Shown here: positions 4,786 through 7,700 of the stretch, in pieces
Numbering within the stretch: position 1 is the first letter of the stretch
Layout of the letters: the number at the start of each line of letters is the position of its first letter
Source of the DNA: an uncultured Chlamydiae bacterium
GTDB taxonomy: Bacteria; Chlamydiota; Chlamydiia; Chlamydiales; JAJFMB01
Reading direction: 5' to 3'
NCBI GenBank assembly: GCA_963696295.1
Contig: CAVOJR010000001.1
Coordinates: 3,104,001-3,168,000 of the forward strand
DNA: 64,000 nucleotides
Notes under the pieces: generated by a model
Databases searched by the model: none
The model's input: only the letters and a program-made list of their open reading frames with translations
Told to the model about the DNA's origin: nothing
Program-made: the position numbers and the translations under genes

Positions 4786-7700
4786 TCAAAAAAAGTTCTT
4801 ATCCTTTTCCTTTTTGTCTAATTGTTTTGAGGCCAGGTCGGCAAGAGCGTTCATGGCGACAAAAAGAGCAGAGGCTTCAGCATTTCCGCTCTTATCTGTA
4901 TGCAAAAGAAGGGCTAATTTTTTTCTGACTTTACTTAAAGCTTCTTTAGTTTTTTCTTCCAGATCAAAATAGGAGAGGGGATCTAAATTTGCGTTAAGTA
5001 TTTTCGACTTAAAATCGTTGTAGGCTTTTGACTTGGTAGGGTCGATCGATCTGTTTTCCAGGACACAGGCATTTAGGATATTTTCTACCAGTGTGGCCGC
5101 ATTTTCGATGCTTTCCCCTTCGAACAGCTTTTGGTAAGTTCCTCTATCTATATAAGCCGGAGGCAGAACCAACCCGGGCGCTTGCTTTTGGTGTAATGTT
5201 CGTAAAAGTTCTAAGGGGCCTTGCGACTTTTGCAGATTATCTATCGCTTCGTTTAACTCGCTTATATAGCCTGGTATCTCGCTGCTCGAATTATTCTTTT
5301 CAAGCGCTGACACATATCTTTTTAAACGGTCTATTACCGTTGACGCAAAGAAGGGATAACTGAACACAATTGGGGCAATGGAGTTTTTTAAATCGAGATC
5401 TTTATCTTCCTTGATTGTAGAAATAAGGCGATTCACTTGGGCGACACAACTGACGATTTCAAAGTCATATTGAGCGATTGCCCTGTTAAAATCTAAGTAG
5501 TAAGAAGGGAGAGGCTTGCGAATTTCCGCTTCAACTTCTTTAGGGCAAGCGTTGTTTGCGATACGAAATTTGGATATATACAGATCTGCCGCGCGAAAAC
5601 AATCGATACTCTTCTGGTGTTGCATGGCGAGAGCTACCCACTCGTTTAACCAATTCAGCGATTGGGAGTTCAACTTTCCTCTATTTTTATTCTGAAGTAA
5701 CGTAATTTTTTCCATAACACTATTTCCGCGTACAGGAAAATCGTATGGAATAGGCATGCTTTCAACTCCCTGGGGCCTCCACAGGGCAATTTGATCATTT
5801 AATGTCTTAATAATGAGTAGCAAATTAAGTTCAGTAATACCTATCTTCTCGGCATAGATACCCCTATATTGAGGGAGGAGGGGATATACATTTAAAGTGG
5901 ACTCCTTAATGCTTCCGCCCATTTGCAGATACTGAGTACGGCACTGCTCAACAACTTTTTGCTGCTGCTGTAATTTTTGTATGACCTCACTTATTTCCTG
6001 TTGGAGGGTTGCATTGTGCGTAGTTTTTCGGCACTCCTCTAATTTAGCGGCATAATCGCGGCCTTCAAAGGGCAATTCGGCAACAGAGCCTTTTACAGTG
6101 GCTATTAAAGGGTTTGCGTTGAGGAAGATGATGTCGCAAAGATCCTTTTGGGCTTTTACATATTCGCTCAGGATCTCTTCAATCGTTTTTGCGCCCTGTG
6201 TCGGAACCGGCTCCTGGACAGGCATGTTCGGGATATTCCCCTCGTTGAACAGGTTTTGATAGGTTTCTTTGTCCTGATAAACTCGAGGCTGAACAAAAAA
6301 GGGCGGGGACTGTTTTTTGTGTAATTCCCGAAAGAGATCTAAGAAGCCTCCTAAAATTTCCAAATTATGGGCAGCTTCTTTTAGCTCATTGAGGCCGGTT
6401 GATTTAGCTTTTTCAAGATGAATTAAATATAGTTTTAAGGTGCTTATCACAAATTTTTCATCTATGGGATAACTGAATTCAAATGGGGCAATGAGGTTTT
6501 TTAGATTGTTTTCGAGCTTATTATCCACTTTGATTTTTGCTAGGAAACGATTCACTTGCGCCAAACTGGTGACAATATCACGTTCAATATGAGGGATGGC
6601 TTTGGTAAAATCTAAGCAAGAGGGCGGTAGAGCTTTGCGGATTTTCTCTTCGATATCTTTAGGAGCATTACCCGGTAGAGGAAATTTAGAAATATGCAGA
6701 TCGGCTGCGCGATTAAGATCCATTATGGTCTGCTGCTCTGTGACGATTGCTTTCAAATTTTCTAACCATTTCTTCGCTCCTTCATCCAGCTTCGCTCCAT
6801 AATTTCTCAAGATGGTTTGGGTTCTTTCTAAAATGGCATTTGCGCTTAAAGGGAAATTGTATGGCAAAGAGACGCAAACAATCCCCTGTTTGCCCCACTG
6901 AGATATTTGTTCATTTAATGTTTTAATGGCTTTGACCAATGTGAATTCGGCAAGACTGATATTTTCGGCATAGGTTTCCCTATATCGTGGGAGCAAGGGA
7001 TATAAATTTATGGTCAAATCCACACCATTTCCCCCCATTTTTACATACTGATCCCGGTGCTGTTCAACGACCTTTTGCTGCTGCTGCAATTTTTGGATGA
7101 GCTCTGTTGTTTTTTGGCATTCTTTCAGTTTGGCGACAATTTGGCGGACATCAAAGGGGAATTCGAAGATCTTTATTACGTTCACTTCCTGAAAAATAGT
7201 ATCGGTAAGCTCAGTTTGCGCCTTAATATAAAGATCCAAGATTTCTTTTCTCGCAGCAGTAGTCTCGGCTGACACGGTGTTATTATCCTTGCCGATCGAT
7301 TTCTCGCTCTCGGTTTGCATTGACGCGTCTTTGCCGAGCACTTCGGTTTGCATTGCCGCGTCTTTTCCGAGTACTTCCGTTTGCATTATCACATCTTTGC
7401 CCGTCACTTCGGTTTGTGTTGCCGCTTCTTTTCCGAGTACTTCCGTTTGCATTATCACATCTTTGCCCGTCACTTCGGTTTGTGTTGCCGCTTCTTTGCC
7501 GAGTACTTCCGTTTGCATTATCACATCTTTGCCCGTCACTTCGGTTTGTGTTGCCGCTTCTTTGCCGGATGTTGCTGTTTTTTGCCGGTCGTTGTTAAAA
7601 TAGGCGAAGGAAAAAACACCGCCGATTAAAACCAAAATTTTGTAGGTTGTCGTTTGGACATAGCTAAATGCGCCGTAGATTAAAGCTGTTTGGGTCGCAA

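Follow-up and report, generated by a model that had tools for sequence, protein, structure and literature searches.

The light chain LC8 (DYNLL) is recruited by motifs that follow a few position rules, counted here from the Gln at position 0, which is followed by Thr or Val at +1. In the accessible parts of PMC6607443 and PMC3078936, these rules place Asp, Glu or Pro at +2 and a polar residue at −4, and the available text of PMC6607443 further prefers a large or basic residue at −3, where a small Ala is less favourable. Ala or Ser does occupy −3 in the validated binders FAM83D, 53BP1 and AMOTL1 (PMC6607443). Many TQT peptides fail to bind LC8 according to the same partly available source, in which 7 of 19 PSSM-predicted peptides bound. 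Several motifs can also act together: in the accessible text of PMC10046861, the QT2,3 pair of ASCIZ, with a linker of 3 residues, gives 2:4 complexes, and in that of PMC12803091, KANK1 builds rods from individually weak sites joined by linkers of 3-4 aa. In HHV-7 U19, two LC8 binders lie 11 aa apart (PMC6607443).

Foreign proteins with LC8 motifs are documented among viruses (rabies P, Ebola VP35, ASFV p54/E183L and HHV-7 U19), with one or two sites each (PMC6607443 table). In contrast, the 79-entry binder table of PMC6607443 holds no bacterial client, and none was found in the available parts of PMC12017986, PMC12057147, PMC3078936 and preprint 10.64898/2026.10.02.755967 or in full-text searches of mainly openly available papers. 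Chlamydial Inc proteins, which include CT850 and IncE (the latter with two SLiMs), are defined in the accessible text of PMC3048545 by a bilobal domain of two TM helices less than 30 aa apart.

Here, we describe P0001, a putative host-directed protein of 1078 aa from an orphan family, encoded at 4786..8022 on the minus strand of a chlamydial window (the whole stretch of 64,000 nucleotides that was analysed). By layout, P0001 resembles KANK1 L2, Nup159, ASCIZ/ATMIN and FAM83D (Chica), to none of which it is homologous: QT 8-mers with linkers of 3-4 residues sit in a segment, predicted to be disordered, that joins a membrane-proximal part to a folded domain, and putatively strong and weak sites are mixed. 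If it binds LC8, P0001 would act in the manner of KANK1 or Nup159. It differs from these eukaryotic clients in being bacterial, in the exact DNA duplication of a 22-23 aa dimer (shared with its homolog P0002) and in having five sites with Met at −1. Unlike the viral mimics, it is putatively membrane-anchored and has eight sites, and P0002 has seven. With the Inc proteins, it shares a chlamydia-like genome, N-terminal hydrophobic segments, a long helical C-terminal part and a candidate SLiM for host contact; however, its hydrophobic pattern is only marginally bilobal, its target would be LC8/DYNLL rather than Tctex1/DYNLT, and a J domain is present.

The QT array and its match to LC8 motifs

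From the letters of this DNA, a sequence-only reading had listed eight tandem QT motifs at 11-aa spacing right after hydrophobic helices, each with an acidic residue at −4, QT at 0/+1 and Glu at +2, and all of this was borne out. The array (aa 151-238; 7309..7572, minus strand), a candidate multivalent LC8 site with predicted disorder, starts 9 residues past the last hydrophobic stretch (aa 124-142), and each of its eight 11-aa units ends in K[DE]xx[TM]QTE. The Gln falls on residues 159, 170, 181, 192, 203, 214, 225 and 236, with a spacing of 11 throughout; three KEAATQTE motifs alternate with three KDVIMQTE motifs, and KDAAMQTE and KDASMQTE follow. Lys at −5, Asp or Glu at −4, QT at 0/+1 and Glu at +2 are present in 8/8, and the residues at +2 and −4 agree with the LC8 rules in every copy. 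Position −1, with a consensus of Thr, Val or Ile, is Thr in 3/8 and Met in 5/8, and position −3 is Val in 3/8 and Ala in 5/8. The Met residues had not been remarked upon before, and neither had the D1/D2 duplication, the J domain and the conservation of the anchor positions in P0002 that are described below.

In the DNA, the array consists of eight 33-bp units (7572-7309), for which TRF reported periods of 33 (×7.8) and 66 (×3.9), and therefore it appears to have grown mainly as a 22-aa A+B dimer. The 66-bp dimer, closed by a pair of variant units, describes the array DNA better than a period of 33. Since all eight copies arose by tandem duplication from only two kinds of unit, their mutual agreement is not independent evidence. 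Antisense open reading frames across the repeat (7277-7629, plus strand) were discarded, being taken for shadows of the long frame. In three sequencing runs, four contigs (151-214 bases) match the gene outside the array; the listed runs include no RNA data containing the gene, and promoter and terminator scans at the gene were at chance level.

In the AlphaFold model, the array is coil without secondary structure at a pLDDT of 24-30, and pLDDT stays below 50 across aa 105-251, a soft proxy for disorder because the alignment held 10 rows only. A PDB sequence search with the repeat gave no matches. Among 5096 open reading frames of at least 100 aa in six frames of the genome, P0001 is the sole one with at least two strict motifs inside a span of 100 aa, and its array holds 8 of the 30 strict matches genome-wide.

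As a reference for binding, we used Table S4 of PMC6607443, with 79 binders and 32 non-binders. KEAATQTE of P0001 agrees with the binder FAM83D (IDAATQTE) at 6/8 positions, and KDSSTQTE of P0002 agrees with AMOTL1 (KDSSTQTD) at 7/8 and with SPAG5 (QDSSTQTD) at 6/8. Met at −1 occurs in none of the 79 validated binders and in none of the predicted sites of PMC6607443, and MQT had no occurrences in the four supplementary files of PMC6607443 or in a paper search. Therefore, five of the eight P0001 sites would be weak or non-binding on present knowledge. CQT, the type present in the relative P0003, appears in PMC6607443 only among predicted sites and not among validated binders. The earlier assignment to the LC8 motif type is supported for the three TQT copies and for the P0002 motifs by their near-identity to validated binders, with the predicted disorder and the linker geometry also in its favour; that all eight copies are favoured sites is not supported, as MQT is without precedent in the 79 binders.

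Linkers between the 8-residue motifs are 3 residues long in P0001 and 3-4 in P0002. The 3-residue linker that an 11-residue period leaves is workable, as judged from ASCIZ QT2,3, KANK1 and HHV-7 U19, and both proteins have the several motifs with uniform linkers of 3-5 residues that characterize rod formers.

Homologs, conservation and background rate

An exhaustive search of 1.84 billion representatives returned 32 matches: the query, 9 true relatives and 22 sequences that matched in the repeat only. Three of the latter, P0011, P0012 and P0031, are eukaryotic, with xQTE arrays at an 11-aa period; one is from a fish, one has PB1, ZZ and NBR1-type Ig domains, and one we take to be Rif1-like. 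From their sequences, these are possible unreported multivalent LC8 clients. Word-indexed homolog searches returned the query or one known member only. When the P0001/P0002 alignment was used to look for loci in metagenomes, 0 of 175 candidates were confirmed, and P0001 gave only weak matches in two others of 61 related genomes, one of them to a J domain. With the family profile, no D domain was among the matches listed for the phylum's 399 other scored genomes; over the 400 scored genomes, the listed matches outside this one fall in the J-domain end.

The relatives have in common the N-terminal module, the D domain and, where the sequence is complete, the J domain. Their linkers differ, with eight QT sites in P0001, seven in P0002 and two in P0003, and no QT array in P0004-P0007, P0009 and P0010. 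In P0003 (31% identity), the corresponding place is taken by a pair of xCQT sites at a spacing of 12 aa; trees of the D domain and of the N-terminal module, from which P0020 was excluded as too short, did not resolve a shared origin of these motifs with those of P0001 and P0002. In P0006, an unrelated Pro-rich repeat (LPPxxVLDE-like) occupies the linker at residues ~115-200, and given this repeat the family linker may be a swapping hotspot for host-binding motifs.

P0002 is 56% identical to P0001 and ends inside D1, its sequence being probably truncated. Its repeat unit is a 23-aa dimer with spacing 12/11, unlike the 11/11 of P0001. In both proteins, a TQT unit alternates with a unit that is hydrophobic at −3 and −1, and all seven P0002 motifs have QT and a residue within Thr/Val/Ile at −1, with Val where P0001 has Met. 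The folded flanks are identical at 101/142 (71%) and 98/158 (62%) positions, and the linker next to the array at 0/10 and 3/15. When the first six units are paired, spacer identity is 0/18 on each side; Gln 0 and Thr +1 are identical in 6/6 and Glu +2 in 5/6, position −4 is Asp or Glu in 12/12, though the two are swapped between the proteins, and position −5 is Lys or Arg in 10/12. The conserved span, −5 to +2, coincides with the 8-residue LC8 footprint. To allow for concerted evolution, the comparison was reduced to two unit types, registered on QT: identity from −1 to +2 is then 7/8 versus 0/6 in the spacers (Fisher p 0.005), and 3/4 versus 0/6 (p 0.03) when the registering QT is omitted. 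This homolog appears to be the best evidence for a function of the array.

The most serious competing explanation is that the array is a neutral, flexible spacer, in which tandem duplication happened to amplify a QTE unit and the likeness of P0002 reflects shared dimer ancestry. We consider this unlikely, although arrays of this kind are easily found. A GTDB scan for three copies of [TVIMA]QT[ED] at 11 aa gave at least 120 stretches, mostly in bacteria without LC8 in reach; among the 80 listed, nearly all belong to free-living bacteria or to gut bacteria, and many lie in linkers rich in E/T/A/Q. Genome scans will yield such QT arrays by chance. In the phylum, the triple-QT pattern occurred in 3/401 genomes (one out of frame) versus 4/401 for the reversed control, i.e., there was no enrichment over the 401 genomes. 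The genome itself is rich in repeats, with tandem repeats in 57 open reading frames by a crude scan that includes antisense shadows, and the corresponding linker is an unrelated Pro-rich repeat in P0006 and without a repeat in others. Therefore, with similar arrays in free-living bacteria, the array alone is weak evidence, and it is the homolog, together with the host-cell setting, that carries the case.

What a neutral spacer does not readily account for is that conservation between P0001 and P0002 is confined to the motif positions, with turnover in the spacers and the adjacent linker, a contrast from a modest sample that would be hard to obtain under neutrality. It also leaves the near-identity to validated binders unexplained, and a strict motif has a probability of only ~1.7e-4 in a random 11-mer. 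Counting against the LC8 reading, on a coarse motif score coded from the rules in the accessible part of PMC6607443 (threshold 6), 19/79 background arrays reach at least 6 in at least three motifs, and P0001 does so in 6/8 motifs. In favour of that reading, Lys or Arg at −5 together with Asp or Glu at −4 in at least three motifs, a criterion chosen post hoc, was found in 0/79 background arrays.

Two further arrays came to light in these scans. An uncultured Wolbachia encodes a protein of at least 808 aa (L077:3-2426, minus strand) with six or seven TQTE, mostly 11 aa apart, followed by a long coiled coil; a TQTE array directly before a coiled coil would be a typical LC8-client layout. QT arrays occurred in 2/201 genomes of its order, namely this one and a CAGA microsatellite, and its type of pattern was in the coding frame in 0 of 200 other genomes of the order. 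In the chlamydial genome G110, a protein unrelated to P0001 (L005:2-751, minus strand) has a coiled coil and, after it, an array of 13-aa units that contain ATQT(E); at least four units precede the point where the contig end cuts the array.

Architecture of the protein and its J domain

Against Pfam and NCBIfam, P0001 has no family above cut-off. The N-terminal hydrophobic module (7597..7875, minus strand), a putative membrane anchor by hydropathy, has one clear Kyte-Doolittle (KD) peak at aa 50-68 (1.92) and weaker ones at aa 101-119 (1.47) and aa 122-142 (~1.3; 1.32 for aa 124-142). All 9 family members whose sequence includes the N-terminus have the first hydrophobic helix (KD 1.65-2.23). 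Against the Inc spacing of less than 30 aa, the KD peaks of P0001 leave a first gap of 32 aa, which is charged, and a later pair that is weak. The module was not found in the two other genomes of the family. Within its own genome, a 371-aa protein (G000:C1:950544-951659, plus strand) has this module alone in common with P0001 (E 3.6e-6), a distant paralog that suggests a reusable targeting module.

Two helical domains follow the linker, D1 (aa 259-599; 6226..7248) and D2 (aa 615-974; 5101..6180), both on the minus strand, all-helical in the models and without a known family or, for D2, a specific fold match. They are each ~350 aa long and 45% identical over 363 columns (E 7e-95). The model of D2 with the J domain has a pLDDT of 89.3 and a pTM of 0.72. 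With this model, Foldseek gave no PDB matches at E ≤ 0.001, and VIA, in which D was folded with J and not alone, gave only generic bundles for the D region (best Z 9.7). TM-scores of the D fold against a viral structure library were below 0.11, and an ESM Atlas search for D2 returned no usable match.

The C-terminal J domain (4792..5037, minus strand) escaped a Pfam DnaJ search with P0001 itself, and homologs of P0001 match PF00226, P0006 above cut-off. The family profile matched solved J domains in the PDB (best E 1.5e-5), and the modelled structure resembles 2ys8 (Z 7.2) and 6jmg (Z 6.9). Taking the homologs' Pfam matches, the PDB profile and the predicted structure together, we regard the assignment as established. 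The canonical triplet HPD is replaced by HTD (His1041-Thr-Asp; 4902-4894, read from the codons). HTD is also found in the relative P0020, a separate record, which makes a sequencing slip unlikely; P0003-P0006 have HPD, and the triplet is degenerate in P0010. Hsp70 stimulation by J-domain proteins needs HPD. P0001 is thus like class C (type III) J-domain proteins in having a C-terminal J fold and sequence profile, and differs from them, together with P0020, in having HTD instead of HPD. In another chlamydial genome, a 336-aa protein (L002:1465-2475, minus strand) has a hydrophobic N-terminus and a C-terminal J domain with HPD, and the loci L133-L139 likewise have chlamydial C-terminal J domains on unrelated N-termini. 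These proteins are possibly a wider class of J-domain effectors.

Genomic context

The genome (3.43 Mb, 2 contigs, 97% complete) encodes SctN, SctU and SctR above curated cut-offs, four ATP/ADP translocases and Hc1, a gene set that fits the profile of an intracellular, environmental chlamydia. Therefore, LC8 would be within reach. An LC8 family search of the genome itself gave no matches; its control also matched nowhere, and this result shows little. The sctV-like gene (G000:C1:256006-258188) is spread over three reading frames, with sctU, sctR and sctN intact. Since dnaK (~C1:676700-678640) is likewise split across frames, assembly indels are the likelier cause of the split sctV. Among 124 conserved genes sampled from 400 kb of a relative, two were frame-split, including dnaK, and three had an internal stop in the match.

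The neighbours of P0001 in the window look host-directed. A SycD/LcrH-like TPR chaperone, below cut-off (1925-2689, plus strand), is followed by an ankyrin-repeat protein by family match (2782-4500, plus strand) that is convergent with the P0001 gene. On the other side lie a 256-aa protein without a family match (9196-9966, plus strand), which has poly-Ser runs, an N-terminus that is hydrophobic and some nine repeats of 9 aa that contain IPP (27-bp period), and a 2987-aa protein with family matches to DUF3638 and a helicase-like P-loop region (10053-19016, plus strand). The first 500 aa of the latter had no PDB or NCBIfam match, and they contain His and QxxGTC motifs that we take to be reminiscent of papain-like deubiquitinases. 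Repeats occur further along the window, namely a 69-bp Ser-rich coding repeat (44028-44325) and a 68-bp repeat in four copies between lgt and the next gene (56815-57088).

Proposed mechanism and alternatives

We propose that P0001 is exported by type III secretion and then anchored in a host-facing membrane, where its disordered linker would present a tandem array of mimicked LC8 motifs. Two copies of the linker would run in parallel, and host LC8 dimers would be strung along the pair, with the canonical TQT sites nucleating and the weaker MQT sites possibly filling cooperatively. Zipping by LC8 would make P0001 a parallel dimer and the linker a stiff stalk, up to ~30 nm long if fully occupied (88 residues at the rise of a beta-strand), which would hold the paired D1/D2 helical domains and the J domain, whatever role the latter might have, away from the membrane. 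For this complete reading, the likeliest of those considered, we regard the arguments for and against as evenly balanced. Against the stalk stand the MQT in 5/8 sites, the Ala at −3 in the TQT copies, the failure of many TQT peptides to bind, the array-free homologs, the background arrays, the lack of enrichment in the phylum, the reduction of the homolog comparison to two unit types and the split sctV, although dnaK is split as well. That the array binds LC8 in one mode or another, as a stalk, a sponge or a tether, is probable given its motifs and their conservation.

The motif evidence for a stalk would serve equally for a sponge, i.e., an array that titrates LC8 from host clients or concentrates it at the vacuole, with no stalk. 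LC8 is abundant in cells, so titration would require high expression of a single effector. The variable site number across the family (8, 7, 2 and 0) would suit this function, as would the behavior of ASCIZ and Nup159, which the partly available literature describes as multivalent clients that are often sub-stoichiometric; in addition, complexes may form out of register where a strong and a weak site are joined by a short linker, according to the accessible text of PMC10046861. However, the array sits exactly between the anchor and the folded domains, and uniform linkers of 3-4 residues are the type tied to rigid rods in the available part of PMC12803091, which makes a sponge improbable in our view.

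A different reader of the sites, such as ATM/ATR-type kinases acting at TQ, a phospho-Thr reader, a glycosyltransferase or a bacterial partner, we find quite improbable. The invariant residues are the Gln and the following Thr, and half of the units have Met or Val before the Gln, which leaves no TQ phosphosite and keeps the LC8-type anchor. Such a reader would be in line with the three TQ dipeptides that P0001 has inside a 25-aa span, the three or four in P0002, and the SQ/TQ motifs in effectors that have been proposed, in partly available sources, as ATM-family targets.

Least credible is the link to dynein, which the sequence-only reading had also offered. In a fuller form, LC8 would bridge P0001 to cytoplasmic dynein and so move the vacuole, a role proposed for CT850 with DYNLT1: chlamydial inclusions do move on dynein, and C. 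trachomatis CT850 binds DYNLT1 (accessible parts of PMC10461009 and PMC6803327), but DYNLT1 (Tctex1) is a different light chain from LC8, LC8 is described as a dimerisation hub in the available text of PMC3078936, and the dynein intermediate chain itself docks onto LC8 with motifs of this class, in the same groove (PMC6607443 table), so that client and motor would compete for the grooves.

Implications

As a naturally occurring and strictly periodic alternation of putatively strong and weak sites, the array offers a way to see what linker length and motif strength each contribute to cooperativity, a question left open by the ASCIZ (PMC10046861) and KANK1 (PMC12803091) papers as far as their accessible text goes, and it would also probe the tolerance for Met at −1. 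The family further offers an uncharacterised helical domain of 350 aa joined to a J domain, which some members keep intact and others have in a degenerate form.

LC8 hijacking is documented for viruses, and a bacterial multivalent client would extend motif mimicry from signalling to host-assembled architecture. More broadly, and only tentatively, intracellular bacteria may build with host LC8: in P0001, a stalk zipped by as many as eight LC8 dimers would set the distance of the helical and J or pseudo-J domain from the vacuole, the length of the stalk would be tuned by the number of sites (eight, seven, two or none), and the unrelated chlamydial L005 and Wolbachia L077 arrays, each next to a coiled coil, would have arrived at this device independently.
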